From IMG/VR virus record IMGVR_UViG_2693429605_000013: DNA of 42,167 nt. One strand, given 5' to 3'. The notes beneath the pieces are model-generated. The model was not told the origin of the DNA and ran no database searches. It saw nothing but the letters and a program-made list of their open reading frames with translations. A program made the position numbers and the translations under genes. Position 1 is the stretch's first letter; every line of letters starts with the position of its first letter. Source of the stretch: a virus. Taxonomy: Duplodnaviria; Heunggongvirae; Uroviricota; Caudoviricetes. Positions 6,567 through 33,568 of this stretch are shown piece by piece.

Positions 6567-6972
6567 CCAAAGCAGTGGCTGTTGTGGTGACCGGTGCTGA
6601 TCTCCGGCTTGCGGTTATTTCAGACTCTCACGGGCGTTTAATTGCCCCGCCGAACAGCTCTTTTCCGCAATAGCTGCAATGTCTTTCGCGCATCAGCCTG
6701 CGCATTCACCACAACGCTGAGAGCACTTAGCCAGTTACGGCACCACACTTTGTCGCGGTTCCATAAATGCCCTCATCGTTGCACCCTGGTCTCTTCCCAG
6801 GCGTCAAACCGAATCGCCACGCTGGTTAGGCGTCTTATCAGCATCCTCATTGACTTGCACATTCCGGCTACCTGGTTTGTTTGCCCGAGCAAGGAGTGGA
6901 TTGTCCCCTTTAACGTCCCCAGACCGCTAACGACGCATGTGCCATACGCCGTGTTACAACCAACCTTTCGTT

Positions 6973-7020
6973 AACAACAGTCTGTTGTTTGTTCAGATAA
7001 TGATGCTACTAAAAGTAGCA
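6973..7020. promoter_or_regulatory. Putative OL operator region: palindromes AACAACAG-T-CTGTTGTT (6973-6989) and TGCTACT-AAA-AGTAGCA (7004-7020)
   Basis: The second palindrome shares the core CTA…AAGTAG with the direct repeats next to cI (9379-9414). Location matches lambda OL relative to cI. Confidence 0.4.
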
Positions 7021-7255
7021 AAAATCAACAACAAAAAGTAGAAGTGTGTATTTAATTTTTAGTTTTCTATATAACGTTATGAATTAAAAGGTTTTTCACA
7101 GATGGGGTGATGTGGCGTAGTTACGTATAGAAAATATCGAGTGTCTTTTGTTTTGGTTTAATTATTAGGTTAATTAGATAGTAATAATTTGGGGGAAAAT
7201 AGTGGGAACTATGGATACAACGGGTCAGGAACAGTGTTATTAAGCAGGCTACGAG

Positions 7256-7280
7256 TATAAAACCCGACCGGTTGGTCGGG
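7256..7280 (-). terminator. Rho-independent terminator downstream of the ParA-like gene
   Basis: Perfect 7-bp stem CCCGACC/GGTCGGG with 4-nt loop, followed on the minus strand by UUUUAUAC; about 40 nt after the stop at 7317. Confidence 0.6.
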
Positions 7281-7316
7281 CGAGAATTATGTTCGTTCTA
7301 AATCATGGTTATTGTA

Positions 7317-8402
7317 TTACAGACACTTGACTACTGTTGAAACATCAGATTCTAGTGCTTCAATTTGTGCTCTATTAGCTTGGGTCGCCATACCATAGAT
7401 AGTGTAACTCTTATGCTGCAGCCTACTTAAAGGGCATCCCTCATGGTTTATTATTGCTGCAAGAGTATTACCATCTTTGACATTTTGAACTCTCTCGAAA
7501 GTAGCCACATTTGTGAACAGATGAGGATGTGTATTTAACAGGTCATCCGTGATTCTTTTGATCTCTTCTGCATGTGATTTGAATGCTTTTGCTGCATCAC
7601 TTTCATTAGTTCTTGAGCGGTTTTGTACGAAAAGGTGTAGTTCAGGTAGTTCGATAAGGTTTTGCTTTGCTTCTTTGTTGAAATCTAAGAACATTTCATC
7701 TTGTTCTGACTTGTCAATAGACACTCCATAAATAAGTTTAACAAGGTTTTTTATTCCGCGAATTGATGCAGCATCGGCAGTGCAAGGGATAATTATTCTA
7801 TTTGCCGCGACTACTCCCAATTCTGTGTAGCTGGCAAAACTTGGATTACAATCAATAAAAAATGTTTTTGCTCTGTCAGAAATGTTTTTATCGGCTTCAA
7901 AAGATGCTATTAGATCTACCAGCAAAGATCGGCTTTTCTTCCATGCTTCTTTTACTGGGGATGAGCCAATGTGAGATATTAAGCGTGAACAGATATCAAG
8001 ATCGACATCACCAGGAAGAATATATAAGTTCTCTGGCATTTTTGCATTAACATCATGGGCTCGTACAAAGTAAGAAGATTCATTTCCTAAACGAGACAAA
8101 GGAGATTTGCTAAAACGCTCCTTGATATAACCTGCGATTGTAACATTTCTGTCTCGCAATTTATTTAGATTTTCTTCCCCGGTACCATTGCCACCAAGAA
8201 TAATTTCTGAAACGTTTGATTGAGGGCATGAGTCAATAACCACAACATCTTGATCCGGATGAGATATAGCAAACTCAACGGCAAGATTATATGTAAGAAA
8301 AGTTTTTCCTACACCACCTTTGTTGTTCCATACTAAATATTTTGTATTGGTGGAAATCATATCTGCTACCCCATCTGTCGCTTCAGTACGTTCATTAATC
8401 AT
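7317..8402 (-). CDS. ParA/MinD-family deviant Walker-A ATPase with C-terminal extension; orphan gene at the rexAB-equivalent locus
   Basis: KGGVGKT deviant Walker A, VIDSCPQSN, and FFIDCNPSFA Walker-B-like motif. 361 aa (alternative ATG at 8360 gives a typical ParA N-terminus). Markedly AT-rich, in an AT-rich island between OL and cI, with its own terminator. Confidence 0.8.
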   Translation of the reverse strand: MINERTEATDGVADMISTNTKYLVWNNKGGVGKTFLTYNLAVEFAISHPDQDVVVIDSCPQSNVSEIILGGNGTGEENLNKLRDRNVTIAGYIKERFSKSPLSRLGNESSYFVRAHDVNAKMPENLYILPGDVDLDICSRLISHIGSSPVKEAWKKSRSLLVDLIASFEADKNISDRAKTFFIDCNPSFASYTELGVVAANRIIIPCTADAASIRGIKNLVKLIYGVSIDKSEQDEMFLDFNKEAKQNLIELPELHLFVQNRSRTNESDAAKAFKSHAEEIKRITDDLLNTHPHLFTNVATFERVQNVKDGNTLAAIINHEGCPLSRLQHKSYTIYGMATQANRAQIEALESDVSTVVKCL

Positions 8403-8635
8403 TATCGTATCCTGTTGTATAGAATTGTCTATTATTTATGTTTTATTTTGGTTTTTTTGTGTTAGTAACGCACCCAAAGATAACATATGGTCTTTATCTT
8501 TTCTTACTTAGGGTAACAGCTCAGTGTTAATCCATTTTTATGGACCAATGTGCCAAATAAAATTTGTATAAAGATTTTCTATCCTTATCTTTTATCATCT
8601 GTGCTCGTTTGCTTTAACGATTGCTAGATGCCTAA

Positions 8636-9376
8636 TTAAAGTCGATTATATTTAATCGACTCATGAATCAGTGCCTTACCCATAACATAAAGCTGATCTT
8701 GCGACTTCTCATCAATGTACCATTTCTCATAGGCGGGGTTATCCGAAAGAACAGCTAGTTTGTTGCCTTGCATTTGTAGACGTTTAACATGGAAAGTCTT
8801 ACCGTAAACGAAAGAGTAAACTCCATCAGTCTGGAAGTGGCGAACGGAAATGTCGACAAACAATCGATCCCCGGAAACAAGAGTTGGGGACATACTATCT
8901 CCATTTACCGTCATAACTTTTATATCATTCTGAGAACGGTTTCCGAAAAGAGAACGGGCATGTTCAGTTGTGAACTCAATGGCGTAGAGCACATCAACAT
9001 AGTCTGAAAGCATATAGGTCCCAGGTCCTGCGCTAACGCTAAGATCCAAAACTTCTATCCTGTATACATCGGGCTTTGTTGGATTGGGGATGCTTGCCAT
9101 TTCCTTACATTCCTCTCTATCTCCAACACCATATTCTAGATATGAAGCTGATACTCCAAGAGCCAACGCAAGTTTACTCATGACAGAGACACGTGGCTTC
9201 GCTGCGCCGATTGTGTATCGACGAGCCATTTCATATGTAACGCCCACAAGACTTTTGAGTTGAGTGACAGAGATTCCTTTGATTGTCATCAATTCGTTTA
9301 GTCTCTTGGCGAAATCTGGATACTTCTGTTCTTCTACCATAGGTAGAAGATTACTCACATCACACGCGCTAGTCAT
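8636..9376 (-). CDS. CI-like prophage repressor (HTH XRE domain + LexA/S24 peptidase-like domain)
   Basis: N-terminal HTH (…IKGISVTQLKSLVGVTYEMARRY…) and C-terminal S24-like autocleavage domain (…VNGDSMSPTL…HVKRL…). Start taken at ATG 9376 (alternative ATG 9340); no SD, consistent with a leaderless PRM-type transcript. Track start at 9397 is TTG. Confidence 0.85.
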   Translation of the reverse strand: MTSACDVSNLLPMVEEQKYPDFAKRLNELMTIKGISVTQLKSLVGVTYEMARRYTIGAAKPRVSVMSKLALALGVSASYLEYGVGDREECKEMASIPNPTKPDVYRIEVLDLSVSAGPGTYMLSDYVDVLYAIEFTTEHARSLFGNRSQNDIKVMTVNGDSMSPTLVSGDRLFVDISVRHFQTDGVYSFVYGKTFHVKRLQMQGNKLAVLSDNPAYEKWYIDEKSQDQLYVMGKALIHESIKYNRL

Positions 9377-9378
9377 TT

Positions 9379-9438
9379 CTATTTTAAGTAGTTGCAATTT
9401 GCTATTTTAAGTAGCATCATCCCTCTGAATTTCAGAGG
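9379..9438. promoter_or_regulatory. Putative OR/PR-PRM operator region: two direct copies of CTATTTTAAGTAG (9379-9391, 9402-9414) and a perfect palindrome CCTCTGAA-T-TTCAGAGG (9422-9438)
   Basis: Repeats read directly from the sequence in the 70-bp divergent intergenic region between cI and cro; the palindrome overlaps the cro SD. Confidence 0.5.
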
Positions 9439-9446
9439 AGAAAGGT

Positions 9447-9710
9447 ATGTCATCTCAAAACTACACAGAGAAAGCAGTAAAGGCTGCGGGAAAGTCTTTA
9501 TCTGAAGTAGCCCGTCGCTTTGGTTTTAAGTCCACTCAATCCGTCGCCAATTGGGTAATTAACAATCAAGTCCCGTCAGAACGGGTTTTACAACTTTGTG
9601 AGTTGGGAAACTGGTCCGTGACCCCTCATGAACTGCGTCCTGATATTTACCCCAATCCAAATGATGGATTACCTGAGTGCTATTCAAAAGTTAGCGGTTC
9701 AACTGCGTAA
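9447..9710 (+). CDS. cro: Cro-like HTH regulator (YdaS-like)
   Basis: 87-aa ORF divergent from cI with AGGAGAAAGG SD and an HTH-like region (…SLSEVARRFGFKSTQSVANWV…). Confidence 0.7.
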   Translation: MSSQNYTEKAVKAAGKSLSEVARRFGFKSTQSVANWVINNQVPSERVLQLCELGNWSVTPHELRPDIYPNPNDGLPECYSKVSGSTA

Positions 9711-9738: not shown

Positions 9739-10323
9739 GTGGGTAAAGAACCTGAATGGAAAGTTGATAAGCAACCAGCATGGCTGGTGGCAGCAATACG
9801 AAGAACGATTGCTGATTTACCTCATGGCTATGAGGAAGCAGCGGAAATTCTTGGTTTGTATAAATCTGATGATATCACCCCAGCGAAAGATCAATTGCAT
9901 AACAGACTGCGTAGCGGTGGGGATCAAATTTTTCCACTTGAGTGGGCCATGGTTTTACAGGATGCCAGTGGTACCAGGCATGTAACGGATGCGATAGCGC
10001 GTCGTAGTAATGGGGTGTTTGTGCCGCTGGTGGACATTGATGACATTGACAATGGTGACATTAATCAGCGGCTGATGGAGTCAATAGAATGGATTGGCAA
10101 GCATTCCCAGTACTTACGCAAGGCAACTGCTGATGGAGTTATTGACCAGGCTGAGCGTGAGCAAATCGAAGAGAACAGCTACCAAGTAATGGCGAAGTGG
10201 CAGGAGCATTTAACACTGTTATTTCGTGTTTTTTGTGCGCCGGAAAAGAGTAACGCCCGCGAGTGTGCAGCTCCGGGCGTCGTGGCGTCGATTGCTTCTG
10301 GTTGTGGAGAAACTAACGCATGA
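9739..10323 (+). CDS. CII-like / YdaT-family regulatory protein
   Basis: 194-aa ORF directly downstream of cro (the cII position); GTG start with GAGG SD. Family assignment is by position and size. Confidence 0.45.
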
Positions 10324-10667: not shown

Positions 10668-11609
10668 ATGAGCACTAAATTAACCGGCTATGTATGGGAT
10701 GGTTGCGCTGCGTCAGGCATGAAGTTATCCAGCGTGGCAATTATGGCCCGCCTGGCTGATTTCAGTAATGACGAAGGTGTGTGCTGGCCATCAATTGAAA
10801 CCATTGCCCGCCAGATTGGCGCGGGGATGAGCACCGTCAGAACGGCTATCGCACGGCTGGAAGCAGAAGGCTGGTTAACGCGTAAGGCGCGTCGCCAGGG
10901 TAACCGCAATGCGTCGAATGTTTATCAGCTTAACGTTGCGAAGCTTCAGGCAGCGGCATTTTCTCAACTGTCAGATTCTGACCCGTCAAAATCTGACGCA
11001 TCAAAATCTGACCAGTCAAAATTTGATGCGTCGAAATCTGGCAAAAAAGCGGGTTTTCACCCGTCAGAATCTGGCGGGGATCCGTCAGTAAAATCAAAAC
11101 ATGATCCGTCAGATAAAAAAACTTCTCGTCCGGACGCTTCGCAACCGGACACGCAGACGGCTGAACAGGAGTTTTTAACTCGCCATCCTGATGCGGTTGT
11201 ATTCAGCCCTAAAAAGCGCCAGTGGGGAACGCAGGATGATTTGACCTGCGCACAGTGGCTCTGGAAAAAAATCATCGCCCTGTACGAGCAGGCCGCCGAA
11301 TGTGACGGCGAGGTGGTTCGTCCCAAAGAACCGAACTGGACAGCCTGGGCAAACGAAATTCGCCTTATGTGTGTGCAGGATGGTCGTACTCACAAACAAA
11401 TCTGCGAGATGTACAGCCGCGTCAGCCGCGATCCGTTCTGGTGCCGTAACGTGCTCAGCCCGTCGAAGCTGCGGGAAAAATGGGATGAGCTTTCCCTGCG
11501 CTTATCGCCGTCCGTCAGCACGTACACCGAAAAACGCGAAGACCCGTACTTCAAATCCAGTTACGACAACGTGGACTACAGCCAGATCCCGGCAGGATTC
11601 AGGGGGTGA
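10668..11609 (+). CDS. Replication initiator, lambda O-like (N-terminal HTH, internal iteron region)
   Basis: 313-aa ORF; N-terminal HTH/winged-helix region; internal DNA iterons encode the repetitive SDSDPSKSDASKSDQSKFDASKS segment, as in lambda O/ori. Confidence 0.75.
   Translation: MSTKLTGYVWDGCAASGMKLSSVAIMARLADFSNDEGVCWPSIETIARQIGAGMSTVRTAIARLEAEGWLTRKARRQGNRNASNVYQLNVAKLQAAAFSQLSDSDPSKSDASKSDQSKFDASKSGKKAGFHPSESGGDPSVKSKHDPSDKKTSRPDASQPDTQTAEQEFLTRHPDAVVFSPKKRQWGTQDDLTCAQWLWKKIIALYEQAAECDGEVVRPKEPNWTAWANEIRLMCVQDGRTHKQICEMYSRVSRDPFWCRNVLSPSKLREKWDELSLRLSPSVSTYTEKREDPYFKSSYDNVDYSQIPAGFRG
10969..11125. repeat. Putative origin of replication: about six iterons of GTCAAAATCTGAC-like sequence at ~15-bp spacing, followed by an A-rich stretch
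   Basis: Direct repeats read from the sequence (GTCAGATTCTGAC, GTCAAAATCTGAC, ATCAAAATCTGAC, GTCAAAATTTGAT, GTCGAAATCTGGC, GTCAGAATCTGGC), then AGATAAAAAAA. Embedded in the O-like gene. Confidence 0.55.
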
Positions 11610-16185: not shown

Positions 16186-16208
16186 GGGGGAATTACCCCC
16201 CTTTTTTT
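16186..16208 (+). terminator. Rho-independent terminator (GGGGG-AATTA-CCCCC plus T7), possibly bidirectional
   Basis: Perfect GC stem followed by a T-run directly after the Q-like gene; overlaps the stop codon of the convergent membrane-protein gene. Confidence 0.6.
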
Positions 16209-16741
16209 CTCTGTTGCTTTAATAAAATTTTAATATTTTGTCTGATTATGATGAGGCAATGTAATAAAAGAAATACCGTTAGTATTGCAAGCCATACGCA
16301 AAATAAGCATGCATATAAATTAGTTGAAAGTCCAATAGTGAATTGTGCAATTGCTGTTGTGATAGAACATAATATTGATGTATTAATAAATGAGGATAAA
16401 TTGTCTAAAGGTTTATAAAGTACACTATCATTGATTTTGTCAATAGGTATACCAGTGGCAATGCTATAAATTTCCTTATATTCCTGAGTTGCAAAAACCT
16501 TATCGCGTAAATTTATTATGACAAAGGTATGCAGGCTCAATAAAAATGAGCCCACGGAAATAAAACCGGAGAAGAGATAGCCTCGTAAGTTTTTATGATA
16601 AAAATCAAAAAAGTTAACACTTACTTTAGGTGTGTTTCTGTACAATAGGTAAAGTGCAAGCAATGCCAGGATCGAGAATGCAAGCAGTGTAAGGTACTGA
16701 TACCTCAATCTTTTATTTATTAGCCATTCATATAAAGGCAT
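16193..16741 (-). CDS. Polytopic membrane protein (four predicted TM helices); second gene of AT-rich two-gene cassette
   Basis: 182-aa ORF with four hydrophobic stretches and a basic C-terminus (…RQNIKILLKQQRKKGG). ATG start overlaps the upstream gene by 14 nt. Very low GC. Confidence 0.7.
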   Translation of the reverse strand: MPLYEWLINKRLRYQYLTLLAFSILALLALYLLYRNTPKVSVNFFDFYHKNLRGYLFSGFISVGSFLLSLHTFVIINLRDKVFATQEYKEIYSIATGIPIDKINDSVLYKPLDNLSSFINTSILCSITTAIAQFTIGLSTNLYACLFCVWLAILTVFLLLHCLIIIRQNIKILLKQQRKKGG

Positions 16742-17654
16742 TTTTATTCGTCCCGTTCAGCATTTCTTCTTTTATCATATCAAAAACAGGGTTTGTTGTA
16801 TAATTATCGTTTGTCAATCCATTGACTTTATCGGCAATTATATCGAAATCGTATGTTTCAAAAAAAACAGGGCAGTTCATAAAATCAATGGTTTTTTCTA
16901 TTCCTGCATGGTTTACTGCAATAACCTGTGCTTTAGCAACTCCACTCATAGAATTATAAATATTTGAAAGATTCTGAGATAGTTGTTGCACTTTTGTTCT
17001 GTCGCTAGAATTAAAATTCATATCTATTGTGGTGGTGTTAACAAATTGTTCAAGCGCAGTCATTGGTCCACCTTTAAAATCTATATAATTAAATTTAAAG
17101 CTTGTGCTTTTAATCTCTTTGAATTGACATAAAACACTCTGAATGTTGTTTTTATTTGTCATAAGGCTGAAAGTCAGTCTTTCTTTGTATTTTTTATTTA
17201 TTGCAGTTACTTCTTTTTGTTTTGGTTTATCACCAAGTTTTTTTATTTCTTCTTTATTTTGATTTCTGATAAATTCATTACTTATTGTTTCTAAATGAGA
17301 AAAGAGAGTGTTCAGACTGCATGAACCGTGGTGATACATATAGAGACCAGAAAGATTAGATTTTTTAATTAAGAAAAAGTTGAAATTAGCAAGTTTGTCA
17401 CTTCCTTGAAGATCTTCAATTTTAAGCTGGAATTTACCATCAACAAATTGCGACTTACAGTTCTTTTTTTGGTTTCTGAATGTGACAACTAATCCATAAT
17501 AGAAATCATTCACATCCGAAATGAGAATTTTACGAGTATAGTCTGTGCGACTGTGTTCTCTGTTTGATGCGTTGATAAAAGCATTCATTACGTCAACGGT
17601 ATTAATATTTTTGTTATTGTTATTTATTGTAAATCCTATGCTTCTAACTTTCAT
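16728..17654 (-). CDS. Hypothetical soluble protein (308 aa), Asn/Lys-rich; first gene of AT-rich two-gene cassette
   Basis: Long uninterrupted ORF with ATG start; no motif I recognise. About 20-30% GC by eye versus about 50-55% in flanking phage genes. Confidence 0.7.
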   Translation of the reverse strand: MKVRSIGFTINNNNKNINTVDVMNAFINASNREHSRTDYTRKILISDVNDFYYGLVVTFRNQKKNCKSQFVDGKFQLKIEDLQGSDKLANFNFFLIKKSNLSGLYMYHHGSCSLNTLFSHLETISNEFIRNQNKEEIKKLGDKPKQKEVTAINKKYKERLTFSLMTNKNNIQSVLCQFKEIKSTSFKFNYIDFKGGPMTALEQFVNTTTIDMNFNSSDRTKVQQLSQNLSNIYNSMSGVAKAQVIAVNHAGIEKTIDFMNCPVFFETYDFDIIADKVNGLTNDNYTTNPVFDMIKEEMLNGTNKNAFI

Positions 17655-32510: not shown

Positions 32511-33568
32511 CGGAACGGGAACTGTCCATTATTCGTGCACTGGGCGAAGAATTCGCCACGGTGCTGGCGGATTTACAGCGCACATTTGAGGGGAAGATGG
32601 CCGCGCAGGCACAAGCGTTTGAAGAGAAACTGGCTTCCCTGTCGGCGGTATTACAGAAGCATGTGACGGTGGATGAGGTACATCCGGTTCTGCAGGCGAT
32701 GGTGGATGACGCTGTGGGGACCATTCCGGTACCGCGTGATGGTCGTGATTATGATCCGGATGTACTGCAGCAGGCGGTGAATGATGCGGTTGCGAATATT
32801 CCGGTACCGGCGGACGGCAAAAGTATCACCCCCGATGATGTGCGTCCGATGCTTGAGCAGATGGTGAAAGAGGCTGTAAGCCATATCCCTGCTCCGCGTG
32901 ACGGTCGTGATTATGATCCGGAAGTACTGAAGCAGGCGGTGAATGATGCGGTTGCGAATATTCCGGTACCGGCGGACGGCAAAAGTATCACCCCCGATGA
33001 TGTGCGTCCGATGCTTGAGCAGATGGTGAAAGAGGCCGTAAGCCATATCCCTGCTCCGCGTGATGGTCGTGATTACGATCCGGAAGTACTGAAGCAGGCG
33101 GTTCTGGAGGCGGTGAATGCCCTTCCGGCTCCGCAGGACGGGCGTGATGCCACGGCACTGGAGGTGCTCCCCGCTATTGACGATCAAAAATCCTTTCCCC
33201 GGGGCACGTATGCCACACACCTGGGTGGACTCTGGCGGGCGTATGAAAAAACGCACGGGATGCGGGGATGGGAATGCCTGGTTGACGGGGTGGCGGATAT
33301 CGACGTCAGCATGACGGATGAGCGGTTGTTCTCTGTGGTGATCCGGCAGAGCAGTGGCCAGTGTACGGAAAAAACATTTTCCCTGCCGGTGATGCTCTAC
33401 CGCGGTGTGTTCAGAGCCGGTGAAACCTACCACCCCGGCGATACGGTGACGTGGGGGGGCTCGCTGTGGCACTGCAACAGTATGACCGGTGATAAACCCG
33501 GAGAAGCTCATTCATCAGGCTGGACCCTGGCTGCAAAACGTGGACGGGATGCAGGAGGCGGAAAATGA
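32507..33568 (+). CDS. Phage head-module protein with internal ~50-aa tandem repeats
   Basis: ATG overlaps the portal stop (ATGA). Contains 2.3 copies of a 150-bp repeat encoding PRDGRDYDP(D/E)VL(Q/K)QAVNDAVANIPVPADGKSITPDDVRPMLEQMVKEAVSHIPA. Confidence 0.6.
   Translation: MTERELSIIRALGEEFATVLADLQRTFEGKMAAQAQAFEEKLASLSAVLQKHVTVDEVHPVLQAMVDDAVGTIPVPRDGRDYDPDVLQQAVNDAVANIPVPADGKSITPDDVRPMLEQMVKEAVSHIPAPRDGRDYDPEVLKQAVNDAVANIPVPADGKSITPDDVRPMLEQMVKEAVSHIPAPRDGRDYDPEVLKQAVLEAVNALPAPQDGRDATALEVLPAIDDQKSFPRGTYATHLGGLWRAYEKTHGMRGWECLVDGVADIDVSMTDERLFSVVIRQSSGQCTEKTFSLPVMLYRGVFRAGETYHPGDTVTWGGSLWHCNSMTGDKPGEAHSSGWTLAAKRGRDAGGGK
32736..33090 (+). repeat. In-frame tandem repeat, 150-bp unit, about 2.3 copies
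   Basis: Copies start at about 32736, 32886 and 33036 and are nearly identical with a few substitutions. Confidence 0.8.

Follow-up and report, generated by a model that had tools for sequence, protein, structure and literature searches.

The open reading frame (ORF) at positions 7317–8402 on the minus strand of IMG/VR record IMGVR_UViG_2693429605_000013, a 42,167-nt stretch of caudoviricete DNA (here called the window), is very probably orthologous, in Escherichia coli, to GiPD474, a Salmonella prophage protein that defends against phages on its own. The window represents an E. coli prophage of the lambdoid type, inserted at mlrA (yehV), and it carries an integrase next to mlrA and an excisionase. 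The gene encodes a ParA-like ATPase and lies between the prophage repressor gene and the left operators. A sequence-only reading of this DNA had proposed from that position, which corresponds to rexAB of phage lambda, that the gene might act in phage exclusion. A 93%-identical gene in the same immunity position is now known to restrict Felix O1, Alf5 and T4 (PMC12724215), in agreement with that proposal.

Identity with GiPD474 and the published phenotype

A full-text literature search led to the work of Bosma, Noireaux and Bowden (Appl Environ Microbiol 2025; PMC12724215). GiPD474 (STM474_RS13505, WP_000368620.1) is a single 1086-bp gene of Gifsy-1 in Salmonella Typhimurium 4/74 and of Gifsy-3 in strain 14028s; its product has an AAA_31 domain with GGVGKT at residues 29–34, and the neighbours of the gene in the immunity region are the repressor, cro and cII genes (PMC12724215). 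We linked it to the window gene through the published knockout primers (Table S2), whose arms translate to DNGRVEATDRPTE and ALESDVSTVVKC. These peptides are residues 2–14 and 349–360 of the S. Typhimurium members P0132 and P0133 of cluster P0001. The window protein and P0133 are identical at 335 of 360 positions (93%), and the 25 substitutions fall mostly at residues 2–18 and 296–301. The 93% identity, together with the matching primer arms, argues that the window gene is the E. coli ortholog of GiPD474. Gene length (1086 bp), the Walker A residues (29–34), the AAA_31 domain and the repressor/cro/cII synteny, with an integrase further along, are the same in both. The window gene falls within the published definition of a GiPD474 homolog (identity and coverage to WP_000368620.1 both at least 70%), and Clade I of that study comprises Salmonella and E. 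coli (PMC12724215). The prophage backbones differ, being Gifsy in the one case and a CPS-53/KpLE1-like lambdoid element at mlrA in the other.

Deletion of GiPD474 restores plating of Felix O1, and the gene alone, supplied from low-copy pWKS30, restricts this phage in strain LT2 (PMC12724215). The upstream cloning primer ends in ACACAGGATACG, by eye a close match to the window DNA just 5′ of the ATG; judged from this match, the cloned Salmonella fragment contains little besides the ORF. In LT2 and E. coli K-12 test strains, plating of T4 falls by ∼5 logs and that of Alf5 by ∼5.5 logs, while T7, SP6, LPST153, Jbel, VpaE1 and S16 are insensitive (PMC12724215). GiPD474 is strongly transcribed in growing Salmonella lysogens, and its authors suggest that it acts after adsorption (PMC12724215). 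Defence by the ortholog is thus the property of a single gene, expressed in the lysogen, that works in heterologous hosts against a subset of contractile-tailed phages. The defence role of a near-identical gene has therefore already been published (November 2025), with E. coli homologs in that paper's phylogeny; the literature searched contained no later mention of GiPD474 and no other functional work on ParA-like defence genes of this kind.

Sequence signatures and fold of the protein

The sequence-only reading, which covered 7256–8635 (the ORF plus its flanks), was right in describing a 361-residue ATPase with a deviant Walker A motif. The ORF starts with ATG, ends with a stop codon at 7317–7319, and encodes the sequence NNK28-GGVGK33-T34. 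RefSeq lists the product as WP_000606712.1, ‘ParA family protein’. It matches Pfam AAA_31 (3e-16, residues 24–227) and CbiA, and PHROG 164, ‘ParA-like partition protein’, at 2e-46. Nevertheless, it lies below the cut-off of every curated NCBIfam family by a wide margin, scoring 48.9 bits against a cut-off of 180 for ParA_partition (NF041546) and 15.9 bits against 212.9 for the MinD model TIGR01968. PADLOC-DB v2, which covers known and candidate defence systems, gave no model or significant match for it, the nearest being a weak hit to Drt5 at E 0.007.

Signature lysine K28, P-loop lysine K33, Walker A′ D57 and Walker B D184 are invariant among 31 family members, and all family-invariant residues are present in the intact window ORF. 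The C-terminal residues are ...ALESDVSTVVKCL; inspection by eye of that end (...QIEALESDVSTVVKCL) did not reveal a MinD-type basic amphipathic tail, and the proteins of the family are not notably basic (isoelectric points 5.6–8.8). No nuclease, membrane helix or other effector domain was recognised in the window protein.

Four cysteines are likewise invariant across the 31 members, which come from several phyla: C59 beside Walker A′ (DxCPQ), C138 in DLDxCS, C185 in Walker B (DCNPS) and C207 in PCTAD. Three of the four are retained in relatives of 35–38% identity, in which C138 is lost. They may form a metal or redox site.

The start codon is ambiguous (window 8358–8402). An alternative start at M15 (ATG 8360–8358) coincides with the N-terminus of distant homologs; all non-enterobacterial homologs and some database entries (P0121, 347 residues) begin at its equivalent. 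Residues 1–14 of the enterobacterial alleles are poorly conserved and have predicted local distance difference test (pLDDT) values below 50.

An AlphaFold2 model built on 31 homologs (pLDDT 84, predicted template modelling score 0.85) shows one alpha/beta domain. Foldseek aligned it over its full length to Soj, McdA and the delta protein of pSM19035 at 13–18% identity, with delta (2oze) at the top and ParA 8ray also among the closest structures. Sequence identity of the window protein to Soj/ParA 8ray, McdA 6noo and delta 2oze is 13–21%, and it is 18% to PDB entry 3pg5 (DIP2308 of Corynebacterium diphtheriae, an uncharacterised structural-genomics target). Up to the last helix the order of secondary structure is that of the ParA topology, with an extra hairpin at residues 331–340.

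The sequence-only reading had placed the C-terminal ∼120 residues beyond a typical ParA fold. In terms of sequence this holds, because the AAA_31 match ends at residue 227 and an hhalign comparison with Soj, which served only as a guide, covers residues 19–222. In terms of fold it does not: the model and the Foldseek alignments rule out a C-terminal accessory domain, the chain being a single ParA-fold domain with insertions. In the model the C-terminal part appears as a normal ParA-fold C-terminus, and ∼100 extra residues are spread over several insertions. These insertions (LGGNGxG, TIAGYIKxR, LPGDxDLDxCS and VKDGNTLAAIINHEG) are some of the most strongly conserved segments in the family. An NRSRTN motif was considered as the counterpart of the DNA-binding arginine of Soj and dropped, since it lies beyond the region aligned by hhalign and the phi297 and IncY relatives described below do not retain its arginine.

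The signature lysine, the deviant Walker A motif and the ParA/Soj fold are common to the window protein and type Ib partition ATPases. The window gene differs from these in lacking a centromere and a partner of the ParB, McdB or omega kind, in its ∼100 extra residues and in the biology of its ortholog, which is phage defence.

The immunity locus

The prophage has CPS-53/KpLE1-like early genes (yfdP, yfdQ, yfdR and yfdN), and across the compared positions, 6900–9500 of the window, its sequence is the same as that of E. coli O145:H28 RM12761. The features of the immunity locus are as follows.

7000–7046, no strand: left operator (OL) region, with operators at 7006–7018 (a perfect palindrome) and 7029–7041, from a motif search
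7252–7281, minus strand: intrinsic terminator just after the ParA-like gene, GCCCGACC-AACC-GGTCGGGT followed by TTTTAT, from a terminator scan and the sequence
7317–8402, minus strand: GiPD474-type ParA-like ATPase gene, from the ORF, AAA_31, CbiA and PHROG 164 matches and 93% identity to Salmonella GiPD474
8403–8635, minus strand: AT-rich spacer of 233 bp between cI and the ParA-like gene, from the sequence and the terminator scan
8636–9340 (frame open to 9397), minus strand: cI-type repressor gene with HTH_3 and Peptidase_S24 domains, 234 residues in RefSeq, from the ORF, domain matches and RefSeq
9334–9414, no strand: right operator (OR) region, with operators at 9379–9391 and 9402–9414 and a third palindrome at 9334–9346, from a motif search
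9447–9710, plus strand: cro-like gene of the YdaS helix-turn-helix (HTH) family, at the right-hand edge of the immunity module, from the ORF, a domain match and RefSeq
9739–10323, diverging from cI like the cro-like gene: cII-like gene, from the ORF, a domain match and RefSeq

The operator motif is a 13-bp palindrome, CTACTnnnnGTAG, present twice on each side, with the two copies of each pair 23 bp apart. OL and OR are further joined by a 47-nt inverted repeat (7000–7046 and 9374–9420, 79% complementary). By eye, a rightward promoter PR (TTGCAA-N17-CATCAT) and a leftward promoter PL (TTGATT-N17-CATCAT), the latter directed toward yfdP/yfdQ/yfdR, can be assigned. Since operators are real on both sides, the ParA-like gene sits between cI and OL, and the order of the locus is OR with PRM (the repressor promoter), cI, the 233-bp spacer, the ParA-like gene, the terminator, ∼220 bp of AT-rich non-coding DNA and OL/PL. 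The earlier placement of the gene on the strand of the cI-like repressor, downstream of it and ahead of an OL-like palindrome (cI at 8636–9340, OL operators within 7006–7041), is thereby upheld, as is its equivalence to rexAB. The AT-rich island that had been described is also real: GC content is 0.367–0.370 at 7001–9000, as compared with 0.44–0.52 in the flanks.

The terminator that the sequence-only reading had assigned to the gene was recovered as a hairpin at 7281–7262 with a stem of 8 pairs (6 GC) and a TTTTAT tail, by which the ParA-like gene is insulated from OL/PL. The scan found no terminator between cI and the ParA-like gene, and the only promoter-like sequence in the spacer is a weak one, TAGACA-16-TACGAT at 8431–8404. 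Transcription of the gene could come from PRM, from a promoter of its own, or from both. The site at 8431–8404 would set the transcript start downstream of the first ATG. The third operator-like palindrome, CTACCATAGGTAG (9334–9346), overlaps the RefSeq cI start codon (ATG 9340–9338), while the frame stays open for 19 more codons, to 9397. With a palindrome on the cI start codon, the PRM transcript may lack a leader, as it does in lambda, or cI may be autoregulated at that codon.

Like the window gene, lambda RexAB occupies the cI-to-OL slot and has its own terminator; it is expressed in the lysogen and excludes T4-type phages. RexA and RexB form a two-protein system of a sensor and a membrane protein and have no relation in sequence or fold to the single-gene ATPase of the window.

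Neither a ParB nor a plasmid replicon is annotated anywhere in the prophage, and no tandem or iterated repeats flank the ParA-like gene, which bears out the earlier remark that a ParB partner and centromere repeats are missing. The only tandem array nearby (10977–11040; 4.3 copies of the 15-bp unit TCTGACCCGTCAAAA) lies inside the O-like replication initiator gene (10668–11609), and probably represents iterons of the phage origin.

Alternation of ParA-like genes in the cI-to-OL slot

Of 5426 complete E. coli genomes, 71 have the gene, and none of these copies falls below 99% nucleotide identity; 70 are chromosomal and one is on a plasmid. A 99%-identical cI allele is also found in 71 genomes, and cI and the gene are adjacent in 71.

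A survey of the slot in related prophages, as the sequence-only reading had recommended, revealed varied cargo. A cI allele of ∼92% identity is present in 133 further complete E. coli genomes, and behind it lies a gene for a 358-residue ‘ParA family protein’ (WP_000167381.1 / WP_023149747.1; MTKSICFFNHKGGVSKT...; loci L016 and L017, 2756–3829, minus strand). It was rejected as a diverged allele of the window gene, since this protein is only 25% identical and belongs to a distinct, 3pg5-like family. An hhalign comparison relates it to residues 20–334 of the window protein at 98% probability and 22% identity; the protein of L016 has 3pg5 as its best PDB match (1e-21) and a weak P-loop match to the PADLOC candidate PDC-M28B. 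It is a candidate defence gene in the same slot. Behind a cI allele of 80% identity the slot holds two small genes (133 and 90 residues; L018, 3298–3972, minus strand), the second with a sub-threshold XhlA-like match. We conclude that cI-to-OL is a genuine cargo slot in which at least two families of ParA-fold ATPase alternate.

The same slot in Gifsy-1 of Salmonella 14028s holds RemAIN (STM14_3218–3220; PMC12724215). RemAIN resembles the window gene in being cargo of a lambdoid immunity region, expressed in the lysogen and anti-phage, and in including a ParA-like ATPase without ParB. It consists of three genes, for the ATPase RemA (840 bp), the immunity protein RemI and the HEPN anticodon nuclease RemN, whereas the window gene is larger and stands alone: no ORF of at least 40 residues that could be a RemAIN-type partner lies between it and OL or cI, and RefSeq annotates nothing there. 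RemA (STM14_3218, Gifsy-1) was rejected as the same gene because of its 840-bp length, its three-gene system and the reported lack of homology between the RemAIN and GiPD474 regions (PMC12724215). HepS, a different Gifsy-1 gene, was also rejected.

The wider family

An exhaustive profile search of 1.84 billion cluster representatives returned 124 proteins at E ≤1e-30 and 500 at ≤1e-10; the GiPD474 family is a small, sharply bounded branch of the ParA superfamily. Full-length homologs of 54–68% identity occur in Campylobacter, Aggregatibacter, Acinetobacter, Moraxella, Alysiella, Gallionella, Azospirillum and cable bacteria. The family thus ranges far past the Enterobacteriaceae, which is new with respect to the published analysis, where homologs were followed to 70% identity within the Enterobacteriaceae. 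The contexts seen are these.

Klebsiella prophages and phage: gene directly behind a different cI
Acinetobacter prophage: cargo slot beside HicAB
Campylobacter: integrase island with SNase, ParE and RhuM
Azospirillum: within an island of type I restriction–modification (R-M), Mrr and insertion sequence (IS) genes
Aggregatibacter, cable bacteria and metagenomic contigs: lone gene among housekeeping genes

Across the E. coli, Klebsiella, Aggregatibacter, Campylobacter, Acinetobacter, Azospirillum, cable-bacterium and metagenome contexts no neighbour is conserved. A flanking promoter, non-coding RNA or terminator that might move with the gene was also looked for and discarded, because the flanks of the E. 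coli and Klebsiella prophages, the spacer between cI and the gene included, are unrelated; the Klebsiella phage allele has an unrelated hairpin and T-run at the position of the terminator. The lack of a conserved neighbour and the unrelated flanks indicate that the mobile unit is the ORF alone. Between the window gene and the Klebsiella phage allele the proportion of non-synonymous differences (pN) is 0.11 and that of synonymous differences (pS) is 0.80 (saturated), indicative of strong purifying selection.

More distant full-length relatives include gp27 of Pseudomonas phage phi297 (38% identity; L020, 5010–6062), directly behind a CI-like repressor, and a protein of the IncY (P1-type) phage-plasmid pRHB32-C05_4 (WP_000220354.1; 35% identity; L019, 6001–7056), whose gene follows an HTH gene near icd and antirepressor (ant) genes. 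The phi297 literature notes only ‘parA without parB’, and no ParB-like gene is among the immediate neighbours shown on the IncY plasmid. Matches by tblastn at E <1e-20 were found on 158 plasmid records, 152 of them below 60% identity.

Other features of the prophage

Some 420 bp between PL/OL and yfdP (6571–6995) contain no annotated gene and only minus-strand ORFs of 25–39 residues; possible contents of this interval are a leader, a nut-like site and a small antiterminator. Related prophages carry extra variable genes between PL/OL and the early left genes, such as one for a ClpX-type zinc-finger protein at locus L017.

A second AT-rich island (16193–17654, minus strand, GC 0.33) carries two overlapping ORFs of 182 and 308 residues. 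It opposes the strand of the late operon and lies between the Q antiterminator gene and tRNA genes, which is the cargo position of Stx phages; its ORFs had no Pfam or PADLOC family match.

Within the portal gene, annotated as frameshifted in RefSeq, lies a near-perfect 162-bp tandem duplication (32732–33102; 2.3 copies, 97% matches), and the prophage may be defective in particle production.

Discussion

The resemblance to partition ATPases raises the question of whether the protein partitions or positions an excised or plasmid form of the prophage, possibly with repressor bound at OL/OR as its centromere-binding partner, in the manner of delta and omega of pSM19035. Its fold is indeed nearest to true partition ATPases, delta and ParA 8ray included; the gene is found repeatedly behind a repressor or HTH gene (in the window, the Klebsiella phage, phi297 and the IncY phage-plasmids); a plasmid carries one of the 71 E. 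coli copies; and the authors of the phi297 study speculated on unstable lysogeny. Nevertheless, we consider such a function very improbable, as the sequence-only reading had judged it for an integrase-bearing prophage, and have rejected it. The prophage is integrated at mlrA and encodes integrase and excisionase, and the other 70 copies are chromosomal; no ParB, plasmid replicon or centromere-like array was found in the prophage; the ParA_partition score is far below its cut-off (48.9 against 180); many homologs stand alone in chromosomes, away from any repressor gene; and the ortholog alone, without prophage DNA or repressor, confers phage resistance on K-12. Less credible still is that the gene is a decaying or silent passenger without current function in this E. 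coli prophage. The frameshifted annotation of the portal gene is consistent with a defective element, but the ORF is intact, keeps every family-invariant residue, is at least 99% identical in 71 genomes and is under strong purifying selection; moreover, it has its own terminator and its Salmonella ortholog is highly transcribed.

Alternatively, the gene might primarily serve its prophage in competing with other prophages, or govern lytic development, and confer resistance to external phages only incidentally. In that case it would suppress the lytic growth of temperate phages, whether already resident in the cell or newly arriving. RemAIN, with its ParA-like RemA in the Gifsy-1 slot, is reported to block the lytic cycle both of foreign phages and of prophages resident in the same cell (Sargen & Helaine, 2024), and strains of the window's type, Shiga toxin-producing E. 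coli (STEC) O145/O157, are heavily polylysogenic. However, RemAIN is reported to need RemN and RemI, and neither has a counterpart beside the window gene, whose neighbours are cI on the upstream side and, downstream, a terminator and non-coding DNA. GiPD474 was tested only on virulent phages, of which T4, Alf5 and FO1 were strongly restricted, and no effect on temperate phages was reported. We therefore regard this role as unlikely to be the primary one, while noting that it overlaps with the defence reading rather than excluding it. Somewhat more plausible, though still improbable, is that the protein serves as a sensor or switch only, its ATP-bound dimer recruiting or mislocalising a conserved host factor (nucleoid, division machinery or a nuclease) and so causing abortive infection. 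The lack of an effector domain, the very high conservation across phyla, which suggests a conserved cellular ligand, the usual role of ParA/MinD proteins in positioning partners and the activity of the ortholog in Salmonella and E. coli alike are all consistent with this. Against it, hosts as unlike as Campylobacter, Azospirillum and the Desulfobulbaceae would need to share a nearly universal partner, and the proteins are neither notably basic nor equipped with a MinD-type C-terminal amphipathic helix.

That the window gene encodes a stand-alone defence protein of the GiPD474 type is supported by the defence-like neighbourhoods of its homologs (the type I R-M/Mrr island, HicAB, ParE/RhuM and prophage cargo slots). 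Several observations weigh against this interpretation. Resistance has been shown for the Salmonella allele only, from which the window allele differs at 25 positions, and PADLOC-DB v2 has no model for the GiPD474 family. The mechanistic half of the interpretation is inferred from sequence and fold. An identity of 54–68% across phyla is atypical for direct recognition of fast-evolving phage proteins, and may point instead to a conserved cellular or nucleic-acid ligand. Several homologs lie among housekeeping genes with no mobile element in view, and parts of the family may have a cellular role other than defence. Furthermore, ten longer distant relatives have no recognisable fused domain beyond AAA_31/CbiA, and the viral structures of BFVD hold nothing nearer than generic ParA.

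ParA, Soj and MinD ATPases undergo ATP-dependent sandwich dimerisation and hydrolysis. The invariance of K28, K33, D57 and D184 predicts the same activities for the window protein, which is thus most likely an ATP-dependent sandwich-dimer switch. In the absence of an effector domain, membrane helix, fused domain or partner gene, the dimer would either act itself or recruit something universal; the ATPase is probably both sensor and effector. After DNA entry, its conserved insertions probably serve as the surface for contact with a component specific to the phage or with a conserved target, either nucleic acid or host, and this contact would block replication or assembly in a subset of myoviruses. 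The specificity of defence within phage genera (T4 is restricted but S16 and Jbel are not; Alf5 and FO1 are but VpaE1 is not) argues for a specific phage trigger, target or counter-defence, while conservation across phyla argues for a conserved ligand such as DNA. Tentatively, and with rather less than even confidence, we propose that the ATP switch binds a nucleic-acid or nucleoprotein intermediate of infection and thereby blocks replication or packaging. The main alternative to such a block is abortive infection through a host target.

Both PADLOC-DB v2 and RefSeq, in which the product is a ‘ParA family protein’, miss this gene as a defence gene. About 1.3% of complete E. coli genomes, STEC O145 and O157 among them, are predicted carriers of an unflagged gene for resistance to T4/Felix O1-type phages, which is relevant to phage biocontrol and typing. 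The central question is how a ParA-fold ATPase with neither effector domain nor partner stops a phage, and it is widened by the extreme conservation across phyla, the mobility of a single ORF and the presence of other ParA-like families in the slot. It is conceivable, if doubtful, that long orphan ParA-fold ATPases (∼340–360 residues) form a broad and mostly overlooked class of stand-alone immune proteins, captured repeatedly behind the repressors of temperate phages, in which the GiPD474 type dispenses with a nuclease or membrane effector by acting through DNA or another universal target; its proposed members are the GiPD474 type, the phi297/IncY-plasmid type, the 3pg5-like type of the E. coli slot and perhaps RemA. 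If this is true, an ATP-dependent, ParA-style interaction with DNA or a universal target would explain why identity remains at 54–68% from E. coli to Campylobacter and cable bacteria.

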